From NCBI GenBank assembly GCA_034417895.1, contig DAOULT010000061.1, positions 22,379-86,378 of the forward strand: a DNA stretch of 64,000 nt. The letters run 5' to 3'. Below, one piece after another: positions 1-44,827 of the stretch (its first letter is position 1; each line of letters opens with the position of its first letter). The notes below the pieces were generated by a model. The model ran no database searches. It had not been told where the DNA came from and saw only the letters and a program-made list of their open reading frames with translations. This DNA is from Anaerolineae bacterium (GTDB lineage Bacteria > Chloroflexota > Anaerolineae > CAZYHC01). Both the position numbers and the translations under genes were made by a program.

Positions 1-1111
1 ACCAGGGACGGGCGGGCTCCTGAGCAATATTTTCCACCTGCCTTGCAAGCCCCAATAGCTCATCAATTTCTGCTTCTGTGCTCAATCGGCTCAGTCTTTT
101 AAAAAATAAATCAATTTGGAATGGCCACTGGAAGTGCTTCTCTAATTCCTCGTGCTTTTCACGTACCAGCTCAATCAATTTCTCTGGCACGCGACCTGAC
201 TCTACATCGCTACTGTATAAAGTCAGATGGTTTTCAAATACGGCGTGCATATCCTCAACGGCAGCGGACATTTTGCCCACCTGCAATTCAGCTAACTGTT
301 CGACTTGATATGTTGTCGTCAAAATCAAATAAGCGTTTTTTAGCTCGAGCGCAGTGTTGATTGCAGACAAATAAGGCGACGATGACAAATCAGCCGGGTC
401 AACACCGTTCTCAAAAGCGTCTTCAATAATATAAACAGTATTTTCAGCTAGGTCTGAATCTTGAGCGAATTCAATGAGTGAGCGGGTATCACCAGCTGTA
501 CGCTTATAAATGCTAAACCGATGTCCTGAGATTTGCCCTGCCTCGTGCAGATCAAGACCTAGATGCACGGCGCAGGTAAGTTTGCCCGCGTGTTCTGGGC
601 CATGAACGATGCAAACTCTTTCTCCATGAGTTCCAAACCCATGCTTTCGCATGTCCTCATAGCCCGGTGATGGGACAAATACCGCTTTCACTTTGCGCCA
701 TTCCTCTTTCAACTCGGCCAGTGGCAACTTATCCGTATCAGGGGCTTTTTCATCTGTCATTATAGTTTGAAAAATGTTAAGTATATCGCTTCTAACATCA
801 CTAAGTTTGACACTTGGCCCAGTTACTACGTCGCCACCCACATCGCGGCCTACGGATACGGCTCCTTCACCGGAAGCACTGACCTGCCGCCCGGCCTCTG
901 GAGCCTCAGGCGCTTCCGCTTGCTCATCGCCTGCTGGCGCTTCGGGCACGATCTCGGAAGGCTCCACTTGGGGAGTGGCCTCTAAAGCCTCAGGCGCTTC
1001 TTCTTGCTCGGCAGGCTGCCTTTCTTCCTGTTCGTCAAATTGACTGCCCAATGGCTCGTCCATTGTTTGCTCATCGGGTTGATTATTCAACGGTTCGTCC
1101 GTGATATTCAT
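1..1111 (-). CDS. Hypothetical P-loop NTPase-like protein; 5' end at 1111, 3' end beyond the window edge
   Basis: Hand translation of the minus strand gives an open frame from ATG at 1109-1111 to position 1. Because it has no stop inside the window it is absent from the ORF track. It has an acidic N-terminus (MNITDEPLNNQPDEQ...), a Gly/Val-rich segment GRQVSASGEGAVSVGRDVGGDVV, then a Walker-A-like GPEHAGKLT and a Walker-B-like VYIIEDAF. The gene is lower in GC than its surroundings. Confidence 0.45.
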   Translation of the reverse strand, partial: MNITDEPLNNQPDEQTMDEPLGSQFDEQEERQPAEQEEAPEALEATPQVEPSEIVPEAPAGDEQAEAPEAPEAGRQVSASGEGAVSVGRDVGGDVVTGPSVKLSDVRSDILNIFQTIMTDEKAPDTDKLPLAELKEEWRKVKAVFVPSPGYEDMRKHGFGTHGERVCIVHGPEHAGKLTCAVHLGLDLHEAGQISGHRFSIYKRTAGDTRSLIEFAQDSDLAENTVYIIEDAFENGVDPADLSSSPYLSAINTALELKNAYLILTTTYQVEQLAELQVGKMSAAVEDMHAVFENHLTLYSSDVESGRVPEKLIELVREKHEELEKHFQWPFQIDLFFKRLSRLSTEAEIDELLGLARQVENIAQEPARPW

Positions 1112-1213
1112 AGCTCGTTTCGCCTTTCGACTTCTGCTCTATTGTACCATAAACTGATCAATCACGAAGCAGCCTGCCTGCAATGTCCCCTCAAATGGAC
1201 ATCCGCTCTTATC

Positions 1214-1279
1214 ATTATACCACACAAAGGTTATAAACAGGTAAAGATCAGGTTAAGATTTGGTTAAAAATTTCAGAAC
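1214..1279 (-). promoter_or_regulatory. Promoter cassette copy A, read on the minus strand: four (A/T)nACC boxes at 11-bp phasing plus extended -10 GTGTGGTATAAT. It drives the minus-strand NTPase gene.
   Basis: The reverse complement reads GTTCTGAAATTTTTAACCaaatcTTAACCtgatcTTTACCtgtttaTAACCtttgtGTGGTATAAT. The geometry matches the copies at 1592-1657, 15640-15713 and 44772-44827. Confidence 0.4.
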
Positions 1280-1583
1280 ATTTGTGCTGCGCAAAAAGCG
1301 GTCTTCGGAAGCTTCTGCGTTTTGAGCGGCGACAAGACGATCTTTGGCGTGACGGGGTTGTTTTGCAAAGGTACATCACCTGCTTCACCTGGCCGGGAGC
1401 AAAGAGCCGGCCCACGCTCTTTCACTACACGTGTGGTAAAGGGCGAGCTATCGTGGTGTGTTAGTCAATGGCGAAAGGGCGTGATGTGGAAGGGGACGAA
1501 AGAAGGACAGGAAGTGAGCGGGCTGGAGCAGTGGAACTGTTGGGCAAGGCTAGGACACAAAGTCTATCACTCGAGGGCATTTA

Positions 1584-1657
1584 GAACCTACGTTCCGAAA
1601 TTTTTAACCGAATTTTAACCTGGGCTTTACCTGGTAGTAACCTTCTTGTGGTATAAT
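1584..1657 (+). promoter_or_regulatory. Promoter cassette copy A2: a GGAACgtagGTTC palindrome, four phased TTTTAACC/TTTACC/TAACC boxes at 11-bp spacing, and extended -10 GTGGTATAAT upstream of the NACHT gene
   Basis: Sequence GTTCCGAAATTTTTAACCgaaTTTTAACCtgggcTTTACCtggtagTAACCttcttGTGGTATAAT. The last ACC box ends 9 nt before TATAAT, as in the three other copies. Confidence 0.45.
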
Positions 1658-1770
1658 ATTTACGGATGGAGTAGAGCCTCCTGCGAAGATGCGGTCTCGG
1701 CCTGCTTTTGCTGTAGCGAATACCAGTTATGCCTGGGTTGCTAAGAAAGATAAAAGCCAATATAATAGGT

Positions 1771-1816
1771 ATATAAAAAACAAAGCCTCGCATGACCGCA
1801 AAACCAGCCGAGGCTT
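1771..1816 (-). terminator. Hairpin AAGCCTCG-N18-CGAGGCTT followed by a T-tract on the minus strand (intrinsic-terminator-like), inside the long 5' leader of the NACHT gene
   Basis: An 8-bp perfect stem. The minus strand reads ...CGAGGCTT TGTTTTTTATAT after the hairpin. The plus strand has no U-tract. Confidence 0.3.
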
Positions 1817-1966
1817 AGCCCAACCATGTAGCCGGAATGCGATGGAGAACCCGACTTTCTGAGGATATCATACCACAGGAGCCTGCCCCTCGCAAACCGG
1901 CGCAGGCTCTTTGTTATTTTGGCCCTTGCCGGTTTGGTGTTTCGTAGATTGTCTGGAGGGGAACTT

Positions 1967-4768
1967 ATGTCAAATAGAGAGCAGGAAATCGAGCACCTGG
2001 AGAAACTGCGGGCCAGGCATCAGGCGAACATCCGCAAGCTGGAAGAGATGCTGGCCGGGTATGGCATGGATCGTCCCTTGCCGCTGCTCAACAACCTGGA
2101 GTTCGAGCAGGAGCAGGTGCGGCAGGTAGAGGAGCAACTGGCGGCTCTCCGTGGAGAGAGGCCGGAGGAGGCTGCCGAAGAGCAGACCACTCCTGCCCCA
2201 ACAGGCGGGCGGCAGGTCACTGCTTCCGGCGAGAGGGCTGTGGCCGTAGGCGGCGACGTTAAAGGAAACGTGATAATTACACAAATGACCGCCGAAGCTT
2301 CCAGAGACTTCTGGCAGCGGTTTGCCGCTCGTCGTTTGTCAAAAGATGAGCTGCACCGGGCTACCAGCAGCTACCTGAAGCACCTGGTAGACCGCTACCG
2401 CTACCTGGACTTCAAAGGGATGGGCGTCTCTGACCGGGTGCCGCTGCGCCTGCCTCTTTTGGAGATGTACGTCCCGCTCAAGGCGCGCATTGAATTGCCC
2501 CAGGGGGAGACCTGGGCGCGCCAGTTGCAACTGGCGGGGCGCAAAGTCAGCGCCGAAGAAGCGGAAATGATGGGCCGGCGCCTGAGCGAGCCGCGCCCGG
2601 CGCTGGAGTTGCTCAGGGAAAACGACGGTCTCATCATCCTGGGCGACCCTGGCGCGGGCAAGACCACTTTCCTCAAGTACCTGGCCCTGCGCCTGGCGAT
2701 TGGGGAGGGAGAGGCTTTGGGCCTGGGAAAGCGGCTGCCCGTGCTGCTGCCCCTTTCGGCCTACGCCAACGTCCTGGCGGAGCGAGATGTGCCCCTGAAT
2801 CGCTTCATCGACGAGTATTACCAGGATCGGGGGGTCGATCTTCCCCTCGGCCCGATGCTGGACGAGGCTCTGGCGCAGGGGGGCGCGCTGCTCCTGCTGG
2901 ATGGACTGGACGAGGTCAGGGAGTTGAGCCAGCGGCACCTGGTGGTAGAGCGGGTGGTGGACTTCTTCACCTTCCAGCGGCAAAAAGGCAACAAGTGCAT
3001 TCTCACCAGCCGCATAGTAGGCTACCGGGAGGTGCGCCCCATAGCGGAGGGGCTAGCGGAATGCACCCTGGTGGATTTCGAGGAAGAGGAGATAGAGCAG
3101 TTTGTGGGGAAATGGACGGGCGCGCTGGAGCGGGCAGCGCGGGGCGAGACGCAGGTGGCCGAGTACGAAGCCGAACGGGAGCGGGAAGAGCTGCTGACCG
3201 CTATGCGTCGCAACCCTGGCGTCAGGCAACTGGCCTCCAATCCCCTGCTGCTCACCATCCTGGCCCTGATGAAGCGGCAGGGGGTCACGCTCCCTGAGAG
3301 GCGCGTGGAGTTGTACGAGCAATACGTGAGGACGCTGCTCAAAAACTGGAACCTGGCGCGTGGATTGGACCGTCCTCCCAGCCGCGATCTGGACGTGGTG
3401 GAGACCGTGCGGGTGCTGGCTCCGCTTGCTCTGTGGATGCACGAGACCAGTCCAGGGGTGGGGCTGGTGAAGCGGGAGGAGATGAGGCGCAGGCTGGAGC
3501 AGATTTACGCCGGGCGAGAGATGCCAGACCCGGAGGGAGCGGCCAGGCAATTGCTGGAAGACGTGCACGATTACGCCGGCCTGCTGCTGGAGCGGGGCCC
3601 TGGAGAGTACGGGTTCATCCACCTGACCTTCCAGGAGTACCTGGCAGCGGTGGCGATTGCCCAGCAGGGCCAGTTGGGAATTGAACCGGTGGTGGAAGCG
3701 TTGACGGCGCGCCTGGGGGACGACAACTGGCGCGAGGTGGCCCTGCTGACCATCGGATACGTGGGGATAGTGGAGCAGCGCGACAAAGCGGCTGGCGCAA
3801 CTCTGGCGAAGTTGATCGAGGCTGCGCCTGGAGAGCCTGGCCCGGCGGCGGTGCTGGCCGGGGAGGCGGTGGCGGATGCCTGGCCCGGCGGCGTGACTCC
3901 GGCTTGCAAAGAGAGAGTGGTGAGGGCGCTGGTAGAGACGTTAGGGGACGAAAAGGTGCAGGCTCCTCTGCGGGCCGAAAGTGGCCGTGTCCTGGCCCGC
4001 CTGGGCGACCCGCGTCCTGGAGTATGCACCCTGCCGCCGGAGTGGGTGGAGATACCTGGCGGAGAATTCGTTATGGGCGAGGGCAGGGAGCAACATAAAG
4101 TGAATCTGCCAGCTTTCTACATCAGCCGCTACCCGATAACCAACGCTCAGTATAAGCTCTTTGTCGAGGCCGGGGGCTATCGGGAGCGGAAATACTGGAC
4201 GGAGGCCGGATGGAAGTGGAAAAAGGACAGAGCAGAGCCGGAGCGATACGGCCCACCGTTCGACCTGCCCAACCATCCAGTGGTGGTTATCACCTGGTAC
4301 GAGGCGGTGGCCTTCTGCCGCTGGTTGAGCGAGGAGATAGGGCAGGAGGTACGCCTGCCGAGCGAAGCCGAATGGGAGAAGGCAGCGCGGGGTACAGACG
4401 GGCGGGAGTGGCCCTGGGGAAACGAGTTCGATGCGGCGCTGTGCAACGTGGGGGATACGAGGATTGGCACGACGAGCGCGGTGGGATGTTTTCCGGGCGG
4501 GGCGAGTCCGTATGGGGTGCTGGATATGGCCGGAAACGTCTGGGAATGGACGCGCAGTCTTTATAGTGAGTATCCTTATAGGGCTGACGATGGCCGTGAA
4601 GATGCGGAGGCTGGTGGCCGCCGGGTGTTGCGTGGCGGGTCGTGGTTCGATATTGAGTGGTTCGTCCGCTGTGCGTCCCGCGACTGGAGCGATCCGCTCT
4701 ACTACAACTTCAACTACGGTTTTCGGGTGGTGGCGTTGTCCCCGCTTTTTCCTACCTCTGGCCTCTGA
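1967..4768 (+). CDS. STAND NTPase of the NACHT family with an N-terminal coiled-coil, HEAT/PBS-lyase-like repeats and a C-terminal formylglycine-generating-enzyme (SUMF1/FGE-sulfatase) fold domain; NLR-like
   Basis: ORF 1919..4768. The likely start is ATG 1967, preceded by the ribosome-binding site GGAGGGG. It has a Walker A GDPGAGKTT, a Walker B LLLLDGLDEV and the NACHT ILTSR motif. The C-terminus carries FGE motifs: YPITNAQYKLFVEAGGY, LPSEAEWEKAARG, WPWGN and VLRGGSW. Confidence 0.85.
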   Translation: MSNREQEIEHLEKLRARHQANIRKLEEMLAGYGMDRPLPLLNNLEFEQEQVRQVEEQLAALRGERPEEAAEEQTTPAPTGGRQVTASGERAVAVGGDVKGNVIITQMTAEASRDFWQRFAARRLSKDELHRATSSYLKHLVDRYRYLDFKGMGVSDRVPLRLPLLEMYVPLKARIELPQGETWARQLQLAGRKVSAEEAEMMGRRLSEPRPALELLRENDGLIILGDPGAGKTTFLKYLALRLAIGEGEALGLGKRLPVLLPLSAYANVLAERDVPLNRFIDEYYQDRGVDLPLGPMLDEALAQGGALLLLDGLDEVRELSQRHLVVERVVDFFTFQRQKGNKCILTSRIVGYREVRPIAEGLAECTLVDFEEEEIEQFVGKWTGALERAARGETQVAEYEAEREREELLTAMRRNPGVRQLASNPLLLTILALMKRQGVTLPERRVELYEQYVRTLLKNWNLARGLDRPPSRDLDVVETVRVLAPLALWMHETSPGVGLVKREEMRRRLEQIYAGREMPDPEGAARQLLEDVHDYAGLLLERGPGEYGFIHLTFQEYLAAVAIAQQGQLGIEPVVEALTARLGDDNWREVALLTIGYVGIVEQRDKAAGATLAKLIEAAPGEPGPAAVLAGEAVADAWPGGVTPACKERVVRALVETLGDEKVQAPLRAESGRVLARLGDPRPGVCTLPPEWVEIPGGEFVMGEGREQHKVNLPAFYISRYPITNAQYKLFVEAGGYRERKYWTEAGWKWKKDRAEPERYGPPFDLPNHPVVVITWYEAVAFCRWLSEEIGQEVRLPSEAEWEKAARGTDGREWPWGNEFDAALCNVGDTRIGTTSAVGCFPGGASPYGVLDMAGNVWEWTRSLYSEYPYRADDGREDAEAGGRRVLRGGSWFDIEWFVRCASRDWSDPLYYNFNYGFRVVALSPLFPTSGL

Positions 4769-4967
4769 AGCTCTCTGGCCCTCTGAAACTCTGATCGCGC
4801 TCTGGTCTCTGGGGGTGGGGTTTGGGGAGAGGGCGCGCCCCCTCCCCAAAGTTTCAAACCGCCGCAGGCGATCGCGGGGGGCGAGATAGGGAGGTAGTGC
4901 TCGCCCTTGAGAGGACATTGATTTTGGCCTGGGGGCGATTGTCGTGCGAAATGGAAAGGGCCTGATA

Positions 4968-4996
4968 TTGACACACTCCTGGTTGTAGGCTATAAT
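4968..4996 (+). promoter_or_regulatory. Consensus sigma70-type promoter: TTGACA, 17-nt spacer, TATAAT
   Basis: TTGACAcactcctggttgtaggcTATAAT sits about 30 nt upstream of the ribosome-binding site AAGAGGAG and the GTG at 5030. Confidence 0.5.
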
Positions 4997-5029
4997 CAAT
5001 GCCAGCCTTAGCTCAAGAGGAGATTGAAC

Positions 5030-5284
5030 GTGATCGAAGGTAACGATAAGGACAACGAAGTGGTGAAGAGTAAGTGGGCCGGTCTGGGCTGTATAGTCCT
5101 GGGGGTGATCGGCATTATCTGGGGCGGCGCGGTGGGGGTGTTGGGGGTGATGACCATCCTGGGCGGCGATCCCTGGGACGCCTGGTTCGGCTACATCCTG
5201 ACCTGTCTGTTCATGATCGGGCTAGGCGTTTTGGCTATCGTGATGGGGCTGGCCGACCGTCGCCAGGGGCCAGAGGCGGGCTGA
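5030..5284 (+). CDS. Small hydrophobic membrane protein (two predicted transmembrane helices), hypothetical
   Basis: ORF 5024..5284. GTG at 5030 lies 8 nt after AAGAGGAG. The sequence is Gly/Ile/Leu-rich (GLGCIVLGVIGIIWGGAVGVLGV). Its 3' end overlaps ybeY convergently by about 50 nt. Confidence 0.5.
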   Translation: MIEGNDKDNEVVKSKWAGLGCIVLGVIGIIWGGAVGVLGVMTILGGDPWDAWFGYILTCLFMIGLGVLAIVMGLADRRQGPEAG

Positions 5285-5792
5285 CGTTATTCAACTGCCG
5301 CAGGATATCATCCTGTCTGGCCCACATCCTGGCCTGTTCTTCCTGGTCGGCGTGGTCGTAGCCCAGCAGGTGCAACACCCCGTGAACGATGAGCAGGCTT
5401 AGCTCCCGTTCGAGGGAGTGGCCGTGTTCTTGAGCCTGGAGGGCGGCCCGCGGGCAGGAGATCACCACATCGCCCAGGTAAGGCGTCGCAGCCCCGGCGG
5501 CCACGATGAAACCATCCCCTTCCCTCTCCAGGGAAAAGGCCAGAACGTCGGTGGGGGCATCCACGCCCCGGAAACGTTTGTTTAGCTCCCGAATGTTTTG
5601 GTCATCGGTGATGACCAGGCTCAGTTCAATCTCTCCGCTTTCCCCCTCACTGTGGAAGGTTTTGGCTACCACCTCGGCCAGCCACTCGTCGTCAAGGTCG
5701 AGGTCGATGGTGGACTGCACCCTGACCCGCAAGCCGTCTGACGTTTGAGGGGGGGAGCGGTCAGCGGACTCGCTCCGGGCTTCTTTGGGCAT
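5235..5792 (-). CDS. ybeY: Endoribonuclease YbeY (rRNA maturation factor)
   Basis: It carries the metal-binding motif HGVLHLLGYDHAD. The ORF overlaps the stop of the upstream 7TMR-HD gene by 32 nt. The true start may be the internal GTG near 5720. Confidence 0.85.
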   Translation of the reverse strand: MPKEARSESADRSPPQTSDGLRVRVQSTIDLDLDDEWLAEVVAKTFHSEGESGEIELSLVITDDQNIRELNKRFRGVDAPTDVLAFSLEREGDGFIVAAGAATPYLGDVVISCPRAALQAQEHGHSLERELSLLIVHGVLHLLGYDHADQEEQARMWARQDDILRQLNNVSPPLAPGDGRPAPSR

Positions 5793-7986
5793 TCTGTTCG
5801 ACCTCTTTCACTGCCGGTTTCGGGGCCTCCTGCTCGACCCTTCTAGCTGCCGGTTTCGGTTTCTCTTGTTCAACCTTTTTCACGGCCTGTTTCAGCGGCT
5901 CAGGATATTTCACCCTGGGGTGGAAAACGCCTTGCAGAGTTTTGACGAAAGCGGCCCTGATATTTTTCAGATCGTCCAGGGTGAGGTCGCTATCGTCCAG
6001 CTCCCCCTGGGAAAGTTTATCGTTAATGATCTTGTGCACCAGCCTGTCGATCTCCTCAGGGGAGTTGGGGCGGGCGCTACGCACGGCGGCCTCACAGCTA
6101 TCGGCCAGCATCACGATAGCCGTCTCCTTGCTCCGGGGTCTGGGGCCCGGATAACGAAAATGAGCTTCGTCCACGGCCTGCGGCATTTCGTTCTCCTGGC
6201 GAGCCTCTCGATAAAAATAGCTGACCAGACCGGTGCCTTGATGTTCGGTGATGAAATCACGTATCCTGGGAGGCAGGTCATATTTCTTAGCCAGGTCCAG
6301 GCCATCTTTGACGTGGCTGATGATGACCTGGGCGCTGGTGTGAGGATCGAGCCGGTCGTGAATGTTTGCGCCCTCCACCTGGTTATCGACGAAAAAGTAA
6401 GGCCGCACGGTTTTGCCAATGTCGTGATAGTAGGCTCCCACGCGGGCCAGGAGATCGTCGGCGCCGATACTTTCCGCCGCCTGCTCGGCCAGATTGCTGA
6501 CCAGGATGCTGTGATGATAGGTGCCCGGCGCTTTTAGAAGGAGTTGACGAAGCAGAGGGTGAGTGGGGCGAGCCAGCTCATGCAGTTGAAAGGAAGTGAG
6601 AACGCCGAAAATATTGCTCAACGGAACGAAGCCCGCCATAGTCAGACTGGCCGCCAGAGCGCCGTTGACCAGGCTGACCCCCATTAGAGTCAGCAAACCC
6701 AACGTATCGTAGTTATGGCCGGGCAGCCGAAAAGCGAGAACGACGGCCAGATTTACGGCGGCCACGTAAGCTCCCGACCGGAAAAGGATGTTCAGCCGTT
6801 CCACCCGGCCCAGAAGGAGGGAGGCCACCAACCCCCCACACAGAGAATAGGCCGTCAATTCCAGAGAACCGTCCGAGAGAAAACCGACCGTCACACTGAG
6901 CAGGATAGAGGTCATTACCGCCAATTGCGGATCGAACAGGATGGAAAGCAACATGGAGAGGGTAGCCAGGGGGAATAGATACGGCAAAATGGTGTGCCCC
7001 TCGACCATCACCTTGGCCACCAAGGCGAAGAAGATGAGCAACGAGGACAATCTCGACAGGTGGTGCAAATTTTTCCATAAATCCGGGCGGAAGCGGATAA
7101 TATACAGGGCCATAACAGACACGACGATGAGCGCGAACAGGATGGCGGCCACCACGTCCAACCATTCGATCTTGGGCTGACGCACTCCCAGGGCGTCGAG
7201 AGCTTCCACGTGCCGGGCGGTAACGATATCTCCGGCTCGCAGAATGATCTCCCCTCTTTCCACGCTCTGCGTGATCTGGGCCACCCTCTCACGAGCCTGC
7301 CGCTTGGCCTCCGTCGTCTTATCGGCGTTGTAGAAGCTATTAGGTCTGACCAGATTCTTTACCAGCTCGATGACGATGGCAGCCTGGTTTTCGGATAGAT
7401 CGAGGCTGATGTCGGTGGGCAGGGAACGTTTGGCCTCGGCCAACTGGTTTTCCTGAATTACGCGGCGCATGGCCCGGCCCAGCACCTCGCTGGTCTGCTC
7501 CACCGTCTTTTTCCATTCCTCAGCGCTGAGAACGAGAATGGCGTCAATGATTTCCGGCGAAAGGCTCAGGTCAGGGATAGCGGCGATCCATTGTCTTTTC
7601 TGCTCTAAAGTAGCGTAGGAATCGTGACGGATGGAATCGATGTAATCACATACCTGGCGCGCTTTGACTATTTGTCGGCGGGCAACCTGCGGATCGGGAG
7701 GATCGTAGACATCCCGCACCGCCGCTTCGGCCCGCGCCTTTTCCTGTTCGGTCAACACCTGGCTGACGTAGGTTTTCTGCACCGGGGCGCGAATGTCCCG
7801 CGGGCTGACATCCCCGACGTCGATAGTCACCTGGCCGATGGGCAAAATGGGGAACGCCAGGATCAAACTCATAATAATGGCAGAAAACAGTCCCAGGAAC
7901 AAGGCGCGAGCTTTTGTCTGCCAGATTATGGCCTGCTCCGTAGAAGGCACCCGTCGATTGAAATTGCCGTAGGTGTTCACCAACAT
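5761..7986 (-). CDS. 7TM-receptor domain fused to an HD/HDIG phosphohydrolase (PgpH/YqfF-like)
   Basis: It has multiple transmembrane helices and an HD motif (HHSILVSNLAEQ ... AYYHDIGK). It lies immediately upstream of ybeY, as in the conserved yqfF-ybeY operon. Confidence 0.85.
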   Translation of the reverse strand: MLVNTYGNFNRRVPSTEQAIIWQTKARALFLGLFSAIIMSLILAFPILPIGQVTIDVGDVSPRDIRAPVQKTYVSQVLTEQEKARAEAAVRDVYDPPDPQVARRQIVKARQVCDYIDSIRHDSYATLEQKRQWIAAIPDLSLSPEIIDAILVLSAEEWKKTVEQTSEVLGRAMRRVIQENQLAEAKRSLPTDISLDLSENQAAIVIELVKNLVRPNSFYNADKTTEAKRQARERVAQITQSVERGEIILRAGDIVTARHVEALDALGVRQPKIEWLDVVAAILFALIVVSVMALYIIRFRPDLWKNLHHLSRLSSLLIFFALVAKVMVEGHTILPYLFPLATLSMLLSILFDPQLAVMTSILLSVTVGFLSDGSLELTAYSLCGGLVASLLLGRVERLNILFRSGAYVAAVNLAVVLAFRLPGHNYDTLGLLTLMGVSLVNGALAASLTMAGFVPLSNIFGVLTSFQLHELARPTHPLLRQLLLKAPGTYHHSILVSNLAEQAAESIGADDLLARVGAYYHDIGKTVRPYFFVDNQVEGANIHDRLDPHTSAQVIISHVKDGLDLAKKYDLPPRIRDFITEHQGTGLVSYFYREARQENEMPQAVDEAHFRYPGPRPRSKETAIVMLADSCEAAVRSARPNSPEEIDRLVHKIINDKLSQGELDDSDLTLDDLKNIRAAFVKTLQGVFHPRVKYPEPLKQAVKKVEQEKPKPAARRVEQEAPKPAVKEVEQNAQRSPERVR

Positions 7987-11567: not shown

Positions 11568-14500
11568 TCACTTTCGGATAAGGGGCAGATTAACAGAGGG
11601 CTGCCGCACCGTAGTGGTGACCGGGCTGCCCATAGTAGGAGTCACTCCTACGACGTTTGTTATCACCGCCCCGTAGTCGTCGTTAGTGATGAGCGTCCCA
11701 GGGGCTGCATTTTTGTCCACCGTGATCGCGAAGGTCAGGGTGATGCTCTCGGTCGGGCTGATTTCCAGGCCCGACCAGGCCACTGTGTTTGTGGCACTGA
11801 TAAACGTACCACCCTGCCCGATGCTGGCGCAGCAGGTGCTGTTCGCTGGCACGGTATCGGTCACCTGGACGTTGTATTCAGGGATGGTAGGGATGGTGGG
11901 GACGGTTTGTTGCTCAGAAACCTGGCCCGGCCCCGCCCAGCCGTCTGCCAGTCCGCCCGTTGTAGCTCCGCTCGTGGCGGTGAGGACGATGGTGTAGTTG
12001 AGCACCCCGCCCGGAGCCACCGGGTCAGGAGAGTCGCTCTTGCTGATGTCCAGGGATAGGGGGGGCATGACCATAGTGGTCACCGCCGGCCCCCAGACTG
12101 GAGTGGGCACCTGCTCGCAGCATACGCCGCAGATAGTGTTGACGATGGCCTGGCCGCCGGCTAAACTGGAGATGGTCACTGTAAACACGCGATTGATGGA
12201 TGCTCCGCTGGGCAGGCTGGCTACGTTCCAGGTCACGATTCCGTCTGACTCTGTGCCTCCATCGCTGGCCGAGTCGAAGCTGGTGTTAGCGGGTACGGCG
12301 TCGGTGATGACCAGGTTCGAGGCCGGACTCGGGCCGGAGTTGGTGATGGTCAGGGTGTAGGTCAGCAGACTGCCGGCCAGAATCGGGCCCGGTTCCCCGG
12401 CCTTGTAGATGCACAGGCATGGCGGGGGAATGACCGTAGTGGTCACTGCCGTGCCCCAGGTTACAGTGGGCACCTGGTCGCAGCGCACGCCGTAGGTGGT
12501 GTTGGTGATGACCTGGCCGGCGGCTAAACTGGAGATGGTCACCGCAAATGTGCGAGTGATAGATGCCCCACCAGCCAGGCTGGACACCGTCCAGCTTACC
12601 ACATTGCCTGCTGCCAGCGTGCCTCCATCGCTGGCTGAGACGAAGCCTGTGTCAGCGGGCAAAGTGTCGGTGATGACCAGACTGGAGGCCGCGCCCGCGC
12701 CGGAGTTGGCGATGGTCAGGGTGTAGGTCAGCAGGCCACCGGCCTGGACCGGGTCCGGGTTATCGACCTTGGCGATGCTCAAGGATGGCGGGATCTCGCA
12801 AGTGCAGATGCGGAAATCGTCAATGAACCAGCCGTAAGCATCAGCCGAGCTGTCGGTGCCGATGCGGAAGCGGAAGCGCACGTTCTCCCCGGCCAGCATG
12901 CTCAGGTTAAGACGGCTGGAGATGTAGCCGTTGCTTTCCTGGCCAAAGGCCTGTCGCCCACCCAGCGGGTTGCCATAGCCAGTGTAGATGGTTCCCCTGT
13001 AGCCGTTGTGAGTGATCAACGACCCGGCGTCTTGCCACGAGGTGCCGCCATCGGTGCTGTACTCGATCACGCCGCCATCATACATGGTTGTTGCATAATC
13101 TTCGAAGGCGTAGGCGTGGTTGAAGTGCAGGTAGGGCGTGCTTCCGGCTGGCAGGGCCACGTCTGAGGTCATGGCTATGTAGTAGTCGGCGACACTGGGT
13201 TGGTTGTAGCCCCAGAGGTTGTAGACGCCGCTGGTGGCGTAGGTGGCATCGAAGCCGTAGGGATTGGCTGTCTGGGGATAGTACCACTCATCGACTCCGA
13301 CCAGCGCCGCATGAGCCCAGTTGCCGCTGGCTGTGTTCTCCATATCATCAAAGAACAGATTGTTGGGCGACTGTCCGATGGGGCAGATGGAAGACTCGGT
13401 CGCCTGGCATGATGACGGCTGTAGGTTCATCTCCGTGGCGTCCACCGCATCCTTTACCTCCTGGCAATCGGCGGCGGTGATGCCGCTGGTGCCGATCAGG
13501 TTGGTGCACGCCTGTTGCAGGCCGTTGTACAGATCGTTGTAGTCGGCGGCCGAGGTGAACATGTTGGCCTGCACTTCGTAGAAGATCTTGGCTGTTTTGT
13601 CAATGCCGATACCGGCGACGGTGTAGCCGTTGAAGATGTCGCCGTCCACCATCAGGTAGGCGGCTTTGCTGCCGACGCCCATGTTGGTATGCACGCCGCC
13701 GTTGTCCCCTTCGCCACAGTAGTAATAGGTGCTGCCCATTCTATCCGGGTCGCCATGGGCCGGTGGGTTGCTCATGTCGCGGATGGCGCCAATGGGCAGG
13801 TCCTCACCCATCTGCCAGCGGTCGGCCGGCATGTCACTGCCTGCCCCGTTGGTCAGGTCAACGAACTCGCCCCATATATCGGAGAAAGCTTCGTTGACAG
13901 CGCCAGACTGCATGTAGTAGAACAGATGCGAGGCATACTCGGTGACGCCGTGGGTCATCTCGTGGGCCACCACGTCGTCGGCCGCAGCGTAGCCCTCACC
14001 GTAGACCATTTGCTGGCCGTTCCAGAAGGCATTGGCGAAGGGGCAACTGCCTGCGTCCGGGCAGTAGCGCACAGTTTGAGTGAGGGTCATACCGGCGTTG
14101 TCGAGGCTATCCCGGTCATGCGTGTTGTAGTAGAAATCGTACGTGTCGCCGCCGTAATCGTAGGCGTCGTCCGCATCCGGTACACCGGTCGCTGGCCCTC
14201 CCTCGGTACGGACCGGGCCGGTACCAGGCAGACCTGCGGTCCAGTCGTTGTTATTGTCGTAGATCACGCGGTTTCTGGCCACGTCGATCTGGTTGAAGTG
14301 CAGAGCGACCGCCCCGGTGTGGGCATCTATCAGGACCAGTTCGCGGACGGGTTGTAGCTCCACCGGAGTCACTTCCATCCGCCAGACCAGGGCGCTCAGG
14401 TTGAAGCTCGGTCCGAGCAGGATCGGGCTGTAGATCCACAGTTCCGGCTGGCTCACCGTGAGGTCGCCGGCGTTGAGGTCATAGTATTTGGTCACCAGAC

Positions 14501-15041
14501 CACGCGCCAGTTCACGAGCGGTACTTGCCTCCAGCCGGGGGGTGGTGTTCACTTTCAGACCGGGCAGAATCTCCCCGCCGGCGGAGATGACGTTCTTTTC
14601 GGCATCCATCTGGACGATCAGTTCGCCGCCCACCACCGGGATACCCTGATAAACCTGCTGGAAACGGACAAAGGAACGGCCCCGGTCGGCCGATGTGACG
14701 CGCATTACCGTTAGCTCCTGAGCCTGGTCGGTCAGGCCGAAAAGCGGGCCGTAAGTTTCCAGAAACCGCCGGGCGGCCTGCTCTGGAGGGTCTCCCCCTT
14801 GAGGGATGGGGTGGGCCAGGTCGGTGCCGATGAACCGGACCCGGCCGGTTTGGGCGTGATAGGCAATGCTTGCCCGGCCGCCTGTTGCCCGCTGCAACTG
14901 GTCAATCAGGCTTGCGTCTGCGGGAGTTGGCGTTGGTGCCTGAGCAGGGGGGGCGGCTTGTGCGGTGACGAGAAAACCGGGAGAAAGGATCAACAAACTG
15001 AAGCAAACGACAATAGATAGAAAGCGCATTATCAATGACAT
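11568..15041 (-). CDS. Secreted M4 (thermolysin-family) zinc metalloprotease with a propeptide and C-terminal DUF11 repeat domains
   Basis: The ribosome-binding site AAGGAGGAGG precedes the ATG at 15041. It has a signal peptide, the HEXXH motif VVAHEMTHGV and the downstream GAVNEAFSD motif. There are at least three DUF11-type repeats (DNPDPVQAGGLLTYTLTI...). The C-terminus ends in PLIRK. Confidence 0.85.
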   Translation of the reverse strand: MSLIMRFLSIVVCFSLLILSPGFLVTAQAAPPAQAPTPTPADASLIDQLQRATGGRASIAYHAQTGRVRFIGTDLAHPIPQGGDPPEQAARRFLETYGPLFGLTDQAQELTVMRVTSADRGRSFVRFQQVYQGIPVVGGELIVQMDAEKNVISAGGEILPGLKVNTTPRLEASTARELARGLVTKYYDLNAGDLTVSQPELWIYSPILLGPSFNLSALVWRMEVTPVELQPVRELVLIDAHTGAVALHFNQIDVARNRVIYDNNNDWTAGLPGTGPVRTEGGPATGVPDADDAYDYGGDTYDFYYNTHDRDSLDNAGMTLTQTVRYCPDAGSCPFANAFWNGQQMVYGEGYAAADDVVAHEMTHGVTEYASHLFYYMQSGAVNEAFSDIWGEFVDLTNGAGSDMPADRWQMGEDLPIGAIRDMSNPPAHGDPDRMGSTYYYCGEGDNGGVHTNMGVGSKAAYLMVDGDIFNGYTVAGIGIDKTAKIFYEVQANMFTSAADYNDLYNGLQQACTNLIGTSGITAADCQEVKDAVDATEMNLQPSSCQATESSICPIGQSPNNLFFDDMENTASGNWAHAALVGVDEWYYPQTANPYGFDATYATSGVYNLWGYNQPSVADYYIAMTSDVALPAGSTPYLHFNHAYAFEDYATTMYDGGVIEYSTDGGTSWQDAGSLITHNGYRGTIYTGYGNPLGGRQAFGQESNGYISSRLNLSMLAGENVRFRFRIGTDSSADAYGWFIDDFRICTCEIPPSLSIAKVDNPDPVQAGGLLTYTLTIANSGAGAASSLVITDTLPADTGFVSASDGGTLAAGNVVSWTVSSLAGGASITRTFAVTISSLAAGQVITNTTYGVRCDQVPTVTWGTAVTTTVIPPPCLCIYKAGEPGPILAGSLLTYTLTITNSGPSPASNLVITDAVPANTSFDSASDGGTESDGIVTWNVASLPSGASINRVFTVTISSLAGGQAIVNTICGVCCEQVPTPVWGPAVTTMVMPPLSLDISKSDSPDPVAPGGVLNYTIVLTATSGATTGGLADGWAGPGQVSEQQTVPTIPTIPEYNVQVTDTVPANSTCCASIGQGGTFISATNTVAWSGLEISPTESITLTFAITVDKNAAPGTLITNDDYGAVITNVVGVTPTMGSPVTTTVRQPSVNLPLIRK

Positions 15042-15639
15042 GATGTTCCTCCTCCTTTTAATCTAAGGTAGATGATTTTCAAATTTAACTACGACCTGTA
15101 TTCTTATTATAAATCACCTCCTTATCCTGCATGGCAATGCCGTTAACTTGAGGGCCAAGGCGATGAAAACAACAGCCTGACCGCATCCGAAAATCCAAAT
15201 AGATAGCCGTGGAGACAGATTGCCTCTCCACATTCTCGTTGAATCTGGCGCAGCAAGCGAACAGGCGAGACGATATTGTCACCTGGTCTTTAGGCCAATT
15301 CTTAAATTAATGAGATCATATTATCGTCGATGTTCTTTGGGAGATTAGAAGATATTTTGTGGAGTAATTGTAAGACAGAGGAGGTATAATGTGCATTGAG
15401 GTTATGATGTGGCAGAACACAGAGTAGAACGGACAACAAAGCTCTATGCTCGATATAGCTCAAGTGATGGGTACTAGAACAACAGGTCTTCAGAGCCTTT
15501 TAGTACCGCGAAGTTACCAGCGTCGAAAAGAGAGTTTAGCAAATTCCTTTCGTTAGCTTGTTACTAAAATTATAAACCGTCCCCCCTTCAAAGTCAAGAG
15601 CTACAACCTTAAAATTTTGCCTAATTGCCCATTATTAAT

Positions 15640-15713
15640 ATTATACCACAAAAAGGTTATTTTTGGGTAAAGATCAGGTTAAAATTTGGTAAAAAATTTC
15701 AGAACGTATGTTC
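15640..15713 (-). promoter_or_regulatory. Promoter cassette copy B (minus strand) with the GAACgtatGTTC palindrome, located about 600 nt upstream of the protease start
   Basis: The reverse complement reads GTTCTGAAATTTTTTACCaaatTTTAACCtgatcTTTACCcaaaaaTAACCtttttGTGGTATAAT. It is about 85% identical to the copy at 1214-1295. Confidence 0.4.
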
Positions 15714-15728
15714 TAAACATGCTCAATG

Positions 15729-22182: not shown

Positions 22183-23892
22183 ATGTACAAACTCATCACC
22201 AAGGGACTGCGTCTACTTTTCATCGTGGCCCTGGCTGCCGGGCTGGCTCTGGGCGCGGCGCCCGTGCCGGTGGCTCACGCCGCTACGATCAATGTCAACA
22301 GCACCACCGATAACACGACCGCTGGCGACGGCACCTGTACCCTGCGCGAAGCTATCAATAACGCCAACGCCGACGCCGATACTACCGGAGGCGACTGTGC
22401 TGCCGGCAGCGGCGCTGACACCATCAGCCTTCTTGCCGGCACCTACACCCTGACGATAGTTTCCACAGACGAAGACGCCAACGCCGACGGCGACCTGGAC
22501 ATCACAGGAGGAAGCGACCTGACCATCCAGGGCGCAGGCGCAGCCACCACCATCATCGACGGCAACGGCAGCGTGACGAATGGCCGTGTGCTCCACATCA
22601 CCATAAGCGACATCACCGTCAGCATAGACGGGGTGACCATTCAGAACGGCAACATGGGAGACTGGGGAGGGGGCATCTACAACCACGGCAGCCATTTGAA
22701 CGTCGCCAACAGCATCATCTCCGGCAACCAGGCAAGCCACCACGGCGGCGGCATCTTCAACTTCGGCGGCACGGCGACCATCTCTAACAGCACCATCTCC
22801 GGCAACCAGACAATACACTACGGCGGCGGCATCGACAACAGCGGCGCGGTGACCATCACCAACAGCACCATCTCCGGCAACCAGGCAAACTGGGGCGGCG
22901 GTGGCATCCGCAACAGCGGCGGCACGTTGAACGTCGCCAACAGCACCCTCTCCGGCAACCAGGCAGACTCTGACGGCGGCGGCATCTACAACGGGAGCGG
23001 CACGACCACCCTGGACAACGTGACGATTAGCGGCAACACCGCCAGCGGCGACGGCGGGGGGGTCACCGGGGACCCCCAATATGGCGGTATAGTCAATCTC
23101 AGAAACACCATCATCGCCGGGAACACCGACACGGGCGGAGAAGCGCCCGATGGTAGCGGGACGCTTACCTCCCTGGACTACAACCTGGTAGGGAACAGCA
23201 CGGGCTGCACCATCACCCTGCAAGCGAACGACCAGATAGGCACCGGCGGCAGTCCCATTGACCCCATGCTGGGACCCCTGGCCGACAACGGCGGCGCGAC
23301 GCACACACACGCCCTGCTCATCGGCAGCCCGGCCATTGATAAGGGCCATTGCACCGACAGCGGCGGCAACCCTGTCACCACCGACCAGCGCGGCGTGGCC
23401 CGGCCACAAGGCGCTACCTGCGACGTCGGGGCATACGAGAAAGCCATTGCGCCTGGCGTGCCAGATTTGTCCATCGGCAAGAGCGCCATCCCTGATCCGG
23501 TGATTGCTGGCGGCCTGTTGACCTACACCATCAACGTGGCCGAAAGGGGCGGCCTGGTAGACGCTACCGGGGTGCAGATGACCGACACCATACCCGCCGA
23601 CACCGTTTTCGCCTGGGCCGACAACGGCGGCTCTCTGGTGGGCGGCGACGTGCTATGGTCGGGCCTGACCATCAGCGCCAGCCAGAGCATCAGCATCGCC
23701 TTTGTAGTGACGGCCAGCTATAGACCCCATGCCACCACGCTCCGCTGGTTCCTCCACAACGATCACTACCAGGCGGTCATCGCTACCACCGCAGGGATAA
23801 GCGTGGTGACAGGCAGCGCCGTGACCACCACGGTACGGGCCATTGGAGCCTATCTGCCCACCATCCAGAGGAACAACGTCATCACGCCGTAA
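22183..23892 (+). CDS. Secreted CSLREA-domain protein with right-handed beta-helix repeats (NSTISGNQA rungs) and a C-terminal DUF11 domain
   Basis: The ribosome-binding site AGGAGAAAGGAG precedes the ATG at 22183. It has a signal peptide, a GDGTCTLREAINNANAD motif, about eight NxTISGNQ(A/T) repeats and a DUF11 motif (PDPVIAGGLLTYTINV). Confidence 0.75.
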   Translation: MYKLITKGLRLLFIVALAAGLALGAAPVPVAHAATINVNSTTDNTTAGDGTCTLREAINNANADADTTGGDCAAGSGADTISLLAGTYTLTIVSTDEDANADGDLDITGGSDLTIQGAGAATTIIDGNGSVTNGRVLHITISDITVSIDGVTIQNGNMGDWGGGIYNHGSHLNVANSIISGNQASHHGGGIFNFGGTATISNSTISGNQTIHYGGGIDNSGAVTITNSTISGNQANWGGGGIRNSGGTLNVANSTLSGNQADSDGGGIYNGSGTTTLDNVTISGNTASGDGGGVTGDPQYGGIVNLRNTIIAGNTDTGGEAPDGSGTLTSLDYNLVGNSTGCTITLQANDQIGTGGSPIDPMLGPLADNGGATHTHALLIGSPAIDKGHCTDSGGNPVTTDQRGVARPQGATCDVGAYEKAIAPGVPDLSIGKSAIPDPVIAGGLLTYTINVAERGGLVDATGVQMTDTIPADTVFAWADNGGSLVGGDVLWSGLTISASQSISIAFVVTASYRPHATTLRWFLHNDHYQAVIATTAGISVVTGSAVTTTVRAIGAYLPTIQRNNVITP

Positions 23893-44707: not shown

Positions 44708-44771
44708 CGAAGAGGGCTAATCCAGGAATTGGCAAAAAAGAGCGCAGGTCTTGCTCTCAGAGCAAGTCCTT

Positions 44772-44827
44772 TTTTAACCAGATTTTAACCTTATTTTAAC
44801 CAGATAATAACCATAACGTGGTATAAT
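44772..44827 (+). promoter_or_regulatory. Promoter cassette copy D: four phased TTTTAACC/TAACC boxes at 11-bp spacing plus extended -10 GTGGTATAAT, upstream of the receiver gene
   Basis: TTTTTAACCagaTTTTAACCttaTTTTAACCagataaTAACCataacGTGGTATAAT. Confidence 0.45.

Follow-up and report, generated by a model that had tools for sequence, protein, structure and literature searches.

Bacterial conflict systems resembling the locus described here, a divergent gene pair in positions 1-4768 of a 64-kb stretch of Anaerolineae DNA (the window, by which this whole stretch is meant), have been the subject of several reports. Signal transduction ATPases with numerous domains (STAND) that join a NACHT or nSTAND1 domain to a C-type-lectin/formylglycine-generating enzyme (FGE) domain, and that are diversified by diversity-generating retroelements (DGRs), have been named 'putative antigen sensors' (Dore et al. 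2024, PMC10907252), and components with an FGS domain appear in the available part of Kaur et al. (2020, PMC7159879). The same part of that source describes GTPase-centric systems of DO-GTPase and GAP1-N2, in which an FNIII-repeat protein is the third component. Bacterial amyloid signalling sequences (BASS) are defined by the C-terminal motif of an effector encoded next to a NOD-like receptor (NLR) with the same motif at its N terminus, with collinear genes in 91% of the pairs (Dyrka et al. 2020, bioRxiv 10.1101/2020.01.06.895854); experiments have established that the Bab/Agp BASS11 motif mediates abortive infection (Ibarlosa et al. 2024, bioRxiv 10.1101/2024.11.07.622273).

The two genes of our locus are separated by an 855-bp spacer. 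Gene 2 lies wholly inside the window and encodes an NLR-like protein with a NACHT domain and an FGE-type C terminus (NACHT-FGE), and gene 1 runs out of the window to the left and encodes the large protein called BIG here. Contig data of 82 kb in all, window and flank together, were examined. The exact gene 2 protein is also present on contig CAZHQI010000007.1 (GCA_964534025.1), where the full-length gene 1 product was read. A previous annotation made without database searches (the sequence-only reading) had taken the unit to be a divergent pair of P-loop NTPases and had called it an NLR-like conflict system. The NLR-like NACHT protein with its FGE sensor stood up to analysis; the unit had to be redrawn, as gene 1 is the first gene of a seven-gene cassette that mostly occurs without a NACHT-FGE neighbour, and what the window contains is an NLR gene abutting a GAP1-N2/DO-GTPase island.

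We lean towards reading positions 1-4768 as the junction of two conflict-type modules that are coupled by a shared, beta-strand-prone peptide of ~25 aa. Each part of the locus is of a known kind; the BIG cassette is a new variation, and so is the motif by which it is linked with NACHT-FGE, caspase and Bell-like proteins. Of most interest is that the large subunit of the island bears a BASS-like motif. To our knowledge, both DO-GTPase/GAP1 systems and NACHT-lectin 'antigen sensors' are purely computational predictions with no known input-output logic, and we know of amyloid signalling only for receptor-to-executioner pairs. A matched BASS-like motif occurs on the GTPase cassette's large subunit as well as on NACHT-FGE receptors and on a caspase or Bell-like protein, and this offers a concrete and testable hypothesis for cross-talk between modules.

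A peptide motif shared by adjacent genes and its partners

The sequence-only reading had noticed a Gly/Val-rich segment in both proteins, and both peptides are indeed present (Table 1). Their local alignment score was 106, against 38.8 ± 4.6 for shuffled sequences, and the similarity is not a matter of chance. It extends to the DNA, where nucleotide identity is 74% within the motif and 45% and 18% in the 60-nt flanks, and the segment forms an 82-nt inverted repeat (823-904 and 2195-2276). When the codons of the two genes were compared (n = 24), eight were identical, eight differed synonymously and eight non-synonymously, with the first seven codons near-identical as DNA. The segment had been placed about 100-150 aa upstream of a P-loop in each protein; this agrees with gene 2, in which it lies 121-145 aa before Walker A (aa 226), and has to be corrected for gene 1, in which it is somewhat closer, at 73-97 aa (Walker A at aa 171). 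No other motif-bearing open reading frame (ORF) was found in the 82 kb.

As in BASS, the motif is common to adjacent gene products of which one is an NLR, and its composition, rich in G, V and A and free of P and L, fits the published BASS bias. It differs from classical BASS pairs in that both carriers in the window are large NTPase-type proteins with the motif in an internal, N-proximal position, the genes are divergent and no Bell-type executioner is present. The closest published class is BASS6, whose instances listed in Supplementary Table 2 of Dyrka et al. (2020, 10.1101/2020.01.06.895854) include ASGERAIAAGESIGVAVSGDNAR, ASGDRAVAVGHNQGIVSTGDGAV and ATGFRSVAVGGDVGVAITGDGAR; these are closely similar to ASGERAVAVGGDVKGNVIIT of gene 2 and ASGEGAVSVGRDVGGDVVTG of gene 1, in particular in the ASGER-AVAVGGDV core. 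The peptide strings were not found in the main text of any paper searched, and instances were met in the supplementary table only. A hidden Markov model (HMM) built from the 26 published BASS6 instances scored gene 2 at 14.3 bits over aa 86-97 only, which was the top score against 1,132 six-frame pieces of the window (next 7.7) and 600 shuffles (best 5.2). Because the HMM support is modest and partial, we call the motif BASS6-like and not a member of BASS6. BASS6 has been described in Actinobacteria with NB-ARC or NACHT receptors carrying TPR or WD repeats, which differs from the FGE sensor and GTPase cassette found here. With a second HMM, built from instances at NACHT-FGE loci, the gene 1 motif scored 21.2 bits.

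The motif is widespread among relatives of gene 2. At least 41 of the 120 best NACHT-FGE homologues have a segment of the form ...G.GAIAQ..GVAAG..GVAVGRDV.GDVI... about 125 aa before Walker A, and the position is kept even behind other N-terminal domains such as kinase and metallophosphatase. At three loci the protein encoded just upstream of NACHT-FGE also ends in it, namely a 229-aa TIR_2 protein whose gene overlaps the NLR start (L017), a 156-aa protein starting MDPLIQS... (L016) and a 328-aa protein starting MDPIVTS... (L014). Thus, as in BASS, sister loci (L016, L017 and the cassette locus L024 described below) have TIR or small MDP-start proteins that end in the motif. The MDP-start N termini are not recognized by Pfam; compared by eye, they seem to resemble the conserved 'MEPIS'-type start of Bell/Bab cell-death executioners. 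The sequence-only reading had suggested that an effector of gene 2 may be recruited in trans, and recruitment in trans through the shared segment is the best-supported reading.

A side observation concerns L014 (1150-2136, 2137-5466 and 6001-8640), where two distinct short motifs seem, by eye, to be present in the 328-aa protein. The first, of GAIAQG type, is similar to the N terminus of an 879-aa NACHT-FGE protein; the second, VQVGGIRAGRIEAENVVDGVQ, is similar to VGVQAGQITAENVVSGMQ in the adjacent 1109-aa NNH2-NACHT-FGE protein. If both pairings are real, one executioner would be addressed by two receptors.

In the BIG family the motif is rare, as the motif HMM detected it in 3 of 159 representatives (the window protein, P0134 and P0147), and the closest orthologues, P0122 and P0123 at 60% identity, lack it. 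Each of the three motif-bearing proteins has a second carrier at its locus. In the window this is the NACHT-FGE protein. At L018, a Peptidase_C14 (caspase)-EAD7 protein and then a protein with the order coiled coil, motif, NACHT, FGE are encoded downstream of the cassette, both bearing the motif, and the motifs of BIG, caspase and NLR represent one locus-specific variant (pairwise scores 176, 120 and 86). At L024, a 145-aa MDP-start protein with a C-terminal motif (33.4 bits) is encoded just after the last GTPase gene. A six-frame search of the cassette loci with a motif-less BIG found no carrier in 10 of 10. A motif on BIG is thus associated with a second carrier (3/3 versus 0/10; Fisher p ~0.0035, 13 cassette loci). 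Moreover, among the 159 BIG N termini the best match of the gene 2 motif is gene 1 (77; next 48). A broader idea, in which any BIG would have a motif in common with the product of its upstream neighbour, was rejected, as the TIR-CHAT protein of L002 and the TCAD9 protein of L005 share nothing above chance with BIG.

The NACHT-FGE protein and the GTPase cassette

Gene 2 encodes, in order, a coiled coil, the motif, a NACHT domain, a helical linker and an FGE/C-type-lectin fold. As the sequence-only reading had stated, it is a NACHT NTPase: the Pfam domain scores 37.3 bits (cutoff 26.7), Walker A (GxxxxGK[ST]) is intact as GDPGAGKTT at aa 226 (2642-2665), Walker B (hhhhDGxDE) reads LLLLDGLDE at aa 308-316 (DGLDE at 312-316), and TSR follows at aa 347-349. 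The sequence features of a NACHT-type STAND NTPase and the three-part layout of an NLR, with coiled coil and motif (aa 1-105), NACHT and helical domains, and a C-terminal FGE fold, are therefore present. The FGE domain predicted earlier was recovered at 203.8 bits by Pfam, and Foldseek searches with the gene 2 model (AlphaFold, mean pLDDT 80.2) agree, with hits to FGE, pFGE, EgtB and ToxD and TM-scores of 0.6-0.67 relative to FGE structures. The HEAT-like repeats of that reading were not borne out, since no HEAT repeat is matched by Pfam HMMs and the model has about seven short helices in their place. Its N-terminal coiled coil without a recognizable effector held up, with two modelled helices and no Pfam match or detectable enzymatic effector in aa 1-210. 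Residues 60-97, which include most of the motif, are of low confidence and disordered in the monomer model.

A catalytic role for the FGE domain is very unlikely, and the domain is predicted to be a non-catalytic ligand sensor, because it scores far below the cutoffs of the EgtB, SenA and OvoA equivalogs (89-115 bits versus 360-420) and lacks the catalytic Cys pair of FGE. There is no Cys between GGSW and VRC, and the loop RGGSWFDIEWFVRCASR has no CxxxxC; we take this loop to be the position of the Cys pair, with which the PDB entry names 'C336S' and 'C341S mutant' agree. The DinB-like N-terminal domain of EgtB is also absent.

Homologues of gene 2 number more than 3,358, with a core 55-70% identical, and their N termini are interchangeable (TIR, metallophosphatase, kinase, SIR2, DUF4062, EAD1 and EAD7). 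The order of coiled coil and then motif recurs in P0028, P0039, P0047, P0056, P0104 and the NLR of L018. Some homologues adjoin RVT_1 and bAvd genes and carry pairs of variable and template repeats (VR/TR). On the grounds of family architecture, N termini and DGR-adjacent homologues, gene 2 belongs to the published class of DGR-diversified STAND-C-type-lectin 'putative antigen sensors', with which it shares a NACHT domain followed by a C-terminal FGE-type lectin fold and an uncharacterised or adaptor-type N terminus, as well as 55-70% identity with hundreds of them. Unlike these sensors, it is not locally diversified: tblastn found no reverse transcriptase or Avd, and no repeat of 4300-4800 that could be a template was found in the window and L001 (82 kb), while the same search gave VR/TR pairs at L014 and L016, its positive controls. 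An active DGR at gene 2 was therefore rejected as far as these 82 kb go, and its neighbour is the GTPase cassette. Gene 2 also resembles antiphage NLRs (bNACHT, Avs and EruA) in its NACHT core and in the succession of N-terminal module, NOD and C-terminal sensor, and differs from them by a score of 40.6 bits with the NCBIfam EruA model (cutoff 1000), the lack of a PADLOC model and the lack of a fused effector. BIG was not present in the few NACHT-FGE neighbourhoods examined (L014-L017).

BIG begins with an acidic disordered N terminus, followed by the motif, a degenerate P-loop module of the AAA+/STAND type, a HEAT-like solenoid and alpha/beta domains with a vWA-like fold; the regions beyond the P-loop module are encoded outside the window. 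The folds were assigned from a model of aa 141-1340 (pLDDT 83.3, pTM 0.67) and fold searches. Inspected by eye, two of the alpha/beta domains have DxSxE and DxSxN sequences that look like degenerate metal-binding (MIDAS) motifs. An exhaustive profile search with the P-loop module gave 327 representatives at E <= 1e-3 and 122 at E <= 1e-30, each representing a cluster at 50% identity. No relative was found in PDB at the sequence level, and a scan of species-representative genomes found nothing. The degenerate Walker A reported earlier for gene 1 (GPEHAGKL) proved to be a trait of the whole family. The Ser/Thr position is F, L, Y or W in at least 123 of ~150 representatives, Lys is replaced by Arg in 45 of ~150, and the acidic residue of Walker B is not conserved. 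Since this degeneracy is family-wide, the module is probably catalytically inert, and BIG probably acts as a scaffold, without STAND NTPase activity. Distant BIG proteins (L009-L011) have acidic N termini only. In the homologue P0130, an EAD7 adaptor domain (42.2 bits) is inserted within the P-loop module (aa 276-339) instead of standing at the N terminus, where a zinc ribbon is found; the family can therefore carry adaptor modules.

The seven cassette genes are tightly spaced and co-directional, encoding BIG, a DO-GTPase2, p224, a GAP1-N2 protein, a second DO-GTPase2 and two Zn-finger/transmembrane (TM) proteins, and are followed by housekeeping genes. The two DO-GTPase2 domains score 41.3 and 37.5 bits (cutoff 27), and the GAP1-N2 domain, encoded downstream of a DO-GTPase (with p224 between them), 25.8 bits (cutoff 24). 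Among the cassette proteins NCBIfam named nothing except the TolB-like propeller. The five-gene core, from BIG to the second DO-GTPase2, is kept in every informative locus recovered, down to ~24% identity (cassette order conserved in L001, L002, L005-L011, L018, L020 and L022-L024), with BIG in the large-component position in 13 of 13 loci. Directly upstream of BIG there is usually an effector gene, encoding CHAT (three loci), TIR-CHAT, PNP_UDP-TIR or TCAD9, and this slot has no effector gene in the window cassette. The lower GC content noted earlier for gene 1 was confirmed (0.52 versus 0.635 for gene 2; GC at third codon positions (GC3), 0.53 versus 0.76) and extends to all seven cassette genes, with GC3 of 0.43-0.58 compared with 0.66-0.73 for the flanking genes; this contrast marks the cassette as foreign in composition, and the NLR gene as apparently resident.

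The cassette shares with the GAP1-N2 systems of Kaur et al. (2020, PMC7159879) the two paralogous DO-GTPase2 proteins, GAP1-N2 downstream of a DO-GTPase, Zn-ribbon/TM accessories, a variable effector slot (CHAT, TIR-CHAT, PNP-TIR and TCAD9) and homologues labelled Chloroflexota. It differs from them in that no FNIII domain was found in any cassette protein, and BIG (~1350 aa) and the conserved ~224-aa protein are present instead. As far as the available part of that source goes, neither BIG nor the ~224-aa protein is mentioned, and by the same measure the cassette is an undescribed variant of the GAP1-N2 GTPase systems, one branch in which the uncharacterised BIG family (~327 clusters) appears in place of FNIII. 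A likeness to the MoxR-vWA and iSTAND ternary systems, as seen in the same available part, is that BIG pairs an apparently inactive AAA+/STAND-like module with vWA-like folds, domain types of which the regulatory core of those systems is made. This likeness is at the fold level only, with no relationship in sequence. Those systems have separate MoxR AAA+ and vWA proteins together with VMAP or iSTAND, BIG fuses the domains with a HEAT solenoid in a GTPase operon, and no MoxR, vWA or VMAP Pfam domain was found in the island.

Some variations on the cassette were seen elsewhere. In other organisms homologues of the small, terminal DO-GTPase2 paralogue are fused to TIR (528 aa; P0284) or CHAT (569 aa; P0324), and effectors can therefore be attached straight to the GTPase. 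L011 (1-1447 and 3285-10373) has parts of two divergent GAP1-N2 cassettes on one contig, with a CHAT gene before the BIG gene. In L007 (12018-13383), ~2.5 kb downstream of the BIG cassette, a protein-kinase ORF is followed by an FGE-sulfatase fragment, which may be a disrupted kinase-FGE sensor.

How the two modules may be connected

If the two modules are coupled, binding of a ligand by the FGE/C-type-lectin domain of gene 2 would be followed by NACHT-driven oligomerisation, which would bring the N-terminal motifs together. Co-operative folding of the clustered motifs could then give a BASS-type nucleus, a beta-arch of amyloid-like character, and this nucleus would capture or template the motif of matching type on the flexible 70-aa acidic N-terminal tether of BIG. 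Captured BIG would in turn recruit or switch the DO-GTPase/GAP1-N2 machine and its membrane-anchored Zn-finger partners. The domain identities, the conservation of the cassette, the distribution of the motif and its association with a second carrier are observed; physical interaction, amyloid character, the direction of signalling and a function in defence are inferred. The data permit equally a variant in which BIG and the NLR both belong to the receptor side and share a single executioner, which bears the motif and has its gene in another part of the genome, since at L018 and L024 BIG seems to take the receptor's role in a BASS pair, opposite a caspase or a small MDP-start protein. It is a further step, possible though on the whole doubtful, to suppose that a BASS-type prion-like peptide plugs an NLR sensor into a GTPase switch and does more than fire a small pore-forming executioner, with BIG as a new adaptor and scaffold that would turn amyloid-type nucleation by a NACHT-lectin receptor into activation of DO-GTPase/GAP1-N2 and the membrane Zn-finger partners, in a composite immune pathway without a conventional effector; the same supposition includes a modular 'motif bus' common to NLRs, caspases, TIR proteins, Bell-like proteins and GTPase systems. 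If the coupling is confirmed, bacterial immune networks would have in short templating motifs a general standard of wiring, analogous to the Death-fold and TIR adaptors of animals.

A number of observations weigh against the coupling of the two modules. With the BASS6 HMM, gene 1 is marginal (7.0 bits), gene 2 is aligned over the first half of the motif only, and the 'GAIAQG' variants score nothing, so that formal BASS6 membership of the latter was rejected. The motifs of the window are internal, not at the extreme termini as in classical BASS pairs, and the two genes are divergently transcribed and strongly different in composition, against the prevalent collinearity of BASS genes. No conventional executioner (Bell, TIR, CHAT or caspase) bearing the motif was found in the 82 kb of the contig. 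The 3/3 association amounts to about two independent lineages because L018 and L024 are related loci, and the absence of carriers from the ten negative loci is not fully established because several of their contigs are short. The gene 1 motif has a slightly higher-scoring match in P0068, an unrelated NACHT-FGE protein, than in gene 2 (81 versus 77), which weakened the idea that it had uniquely co-evolved with gene 2. Finally, a check against defence-system models, which the sequence-only reading had proposed, was negative, as PADLOC gave no significant match for the two window proteins or for any of the seven cassette proteins.

Several of these points are also what one expects if the neighbours are coincidental, that is, if a horizontally acquired DO-GTPase/GAP1-N2 island came to lie beside a resident NACHT-FGE gene and each uses a widespread motif among partners of its own, either to homo-oligomerise or to engage executioners from other loci, with no cross-talk. 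The foreign GC3 of the cassette next to the host-like value of NACHT-FGE, the divergent arrangement, the frequency of the motif within the NACHT-FGE family, the equally good fit of the gene 1 motif to P0068 and the fact that most BIG cassettes have no NACHT-FGE neighbour would all be explained. Nevertheless, we regard coincidence as rather unlikely, since the motif is confined to three of the BIG representatives, all at loci with another carrier, and missing from the closest orthologues; the variant common to BIG, caspase and NLR at L018 and the near-identity of the first seven motif codons in the window also speak for a connection.

Less probable still is that the motif is a cis-acting structural element, such as a beta-hairpin linker or an autoinhibitory or homo-oligomerisation strand acting on its own NTPase module, and serves neither signalling nor amyloid formation. 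Its internal position at a fixed distance before NACHT even after kinase or metallophosphatase domains, a weak likeness to YadA-head beta-roll repeats (E 0.057 to 0.8) and the lack of a confident AlphaFold fold are consistent with such an element, which would not account for the motif at the C terminus of TIR_2 and small helical proteins without an NTPase module, inside the caspase-EAD7 protein, or on BIG, whose NTPase module is unrelated to NACHT by sequence. The question of whether gene 2 is an immune-type receptor at all arises from public names such as 'SUMF1/EgtB/PvdO family nonheme iron enzyme' and from its best PDB sequence matches, ToxD, EgtB and OvsA. That it is a SUMF1/EgtB/PvdO-type enzyme or regulator is nevertheless very improbable, considering the 114 bits reached against the equivalog cutoffs, the missing Cys pair and DinB-like domain, the fusion to NACHT, and the homologues, which include DGR targets (VR/TR pairs) and proteins that begin with TIR, kinase, SIR2 or EAD domains.

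Coordinates, promoter module and neighbouring genes

The features of the locus are given in Table 1. The start of gene 2 at 1967, after GGAGG, is the most plausible one; the ORF list also has a longer alternative with a TTG start at 1919.

Table 1. Positions of the features in the window, and the proteins of the cassette that BIG heads
Feature	Position (nt)	Strand	Remarks
Gene 1 (BIG), 5' part	1..1111	-	aa 1-370 of 1368; ATG at 1111; continues past left window edge
Degenerate Walker A of gene 1	578..601	-	GPEHAGKL, aa 171-178
Shared Gly/Val motif of gene 1	818..892	-	aa 74-98, GRQVSASGEGAVSVGRDVGGDVVTG
Promoter-type cassette copy facing gene 1	1214..1288	-	Phased TTAACC/TTTACC boxes, then TGTGGTATAAT
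Promoter-type cassette copy facing gene 2	1583..1657	+	Followed by ~310-nt leader
Gene 2	1967..4768	+	933 aa; ATG at 1967; stop at 4768
N-terminal helical (coiled-coil-like) pair of gene 2	1973..2152	+	aa 3-62; AlphaFold model helices 3-31 and 45-62
Shared Gly/Val motif of gene 2	2207..2281	+	aa 81-105, GRQVTASGERAVAVGGDVKGNVIIT; BASS6-like
NACHT NTPase domain	2630..3118	+	aa 222-384; Pfam
Short helical-repeat linker	3629..4006	+	aa 555-680; ~7 helices; AlphaFold model
FGE-sulfatase/C-type-lectin-fold domain	4037..4732	+	aa 691-922; Pfam, Foldseek; predicted non-catalytic ligand sensor
Cassette protein 1			BIG, 1368 aa
Cassette protein 2			DO-GTPase2, 462 aa
Cassette protein 3			p224, 224 aa
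Cassette protein 4			GAP1-N2 protein, 540 aa
Cassette protein 5			Second DO-GTPase2, 326 aa
Cassette protein 6			Zn-finger/TM, 183 aa
Cassette protein 7			Prok-RING, TM, PD40/TolB-like propeller, 390 aa

Both genes had been thought to be driven by copies of the same promoter cassette. The 75-nt repeat is indeed present in two copies in the spacer, which are 81% complementary and each end with TGTGGTATAAT; it is not particular to this pair. The module (~70 nt) consists of four TTAACC/TTTACC boxes, ~11 bp apart by eye, followed by an extended -10 box, TGTGGTATAAT or CGTGGTATAAT, and occurs in four copies in the 64 kb, the other two being 15635-15714 (-), which a terminator precedes and an M4 protease gene follows, and 44771-44827 (+). 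As these two precede unrelated genes, the module is generic to the genome and is no evidence for a co-regulation particular to gene 1 and gene 2. Two of the four copies come directly after terminator-like hairpins, and long 5' leaders (~100-800 nt, read from coordinates) follow all four. The module may be the site of a dedicated activator or sigma factor, or a lineage-typical strong promoter with an UP element.

Positions 1289-1966 include the 294 nt that separate the divergent promoter copies as well as the gene 2 leader of ~310 nt; terminator-like hairpins occur there at ~1784-1805 (-) and 1874-1915, and an attenuator or small RNA is possible. A search of 1-6000 with Rfam at permissive thresholds gave one chance miRNA match only and no riboswitch or small RNA family in the long leaders.

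Directly downstream of the NACHT-FGE gene, a perfect sigma-70 consensus (TTGACA, 17 nt, TATAAT) at 4968-4996 precedes a gene for an 86-aa membrane protein (5024-5284), which overlaps the 3' end of ybeY. The protein lacks the motif and has a sub-threshold match to Phage_holin_3_6 (24.7 bits versus the cutoff of 28.4). Farther away are two arrays of diverged direct repeats, one at 49509-51107 (six copies of ~280 nt) and one at 22669-23043 (four copies of ~78 nt). The stretches at 11.5-12.1 kb and 23.5-26.6 kb form large inverted repeats with each other, which points to paralogous genes, among them the M4 protease gene at 11568-15041.

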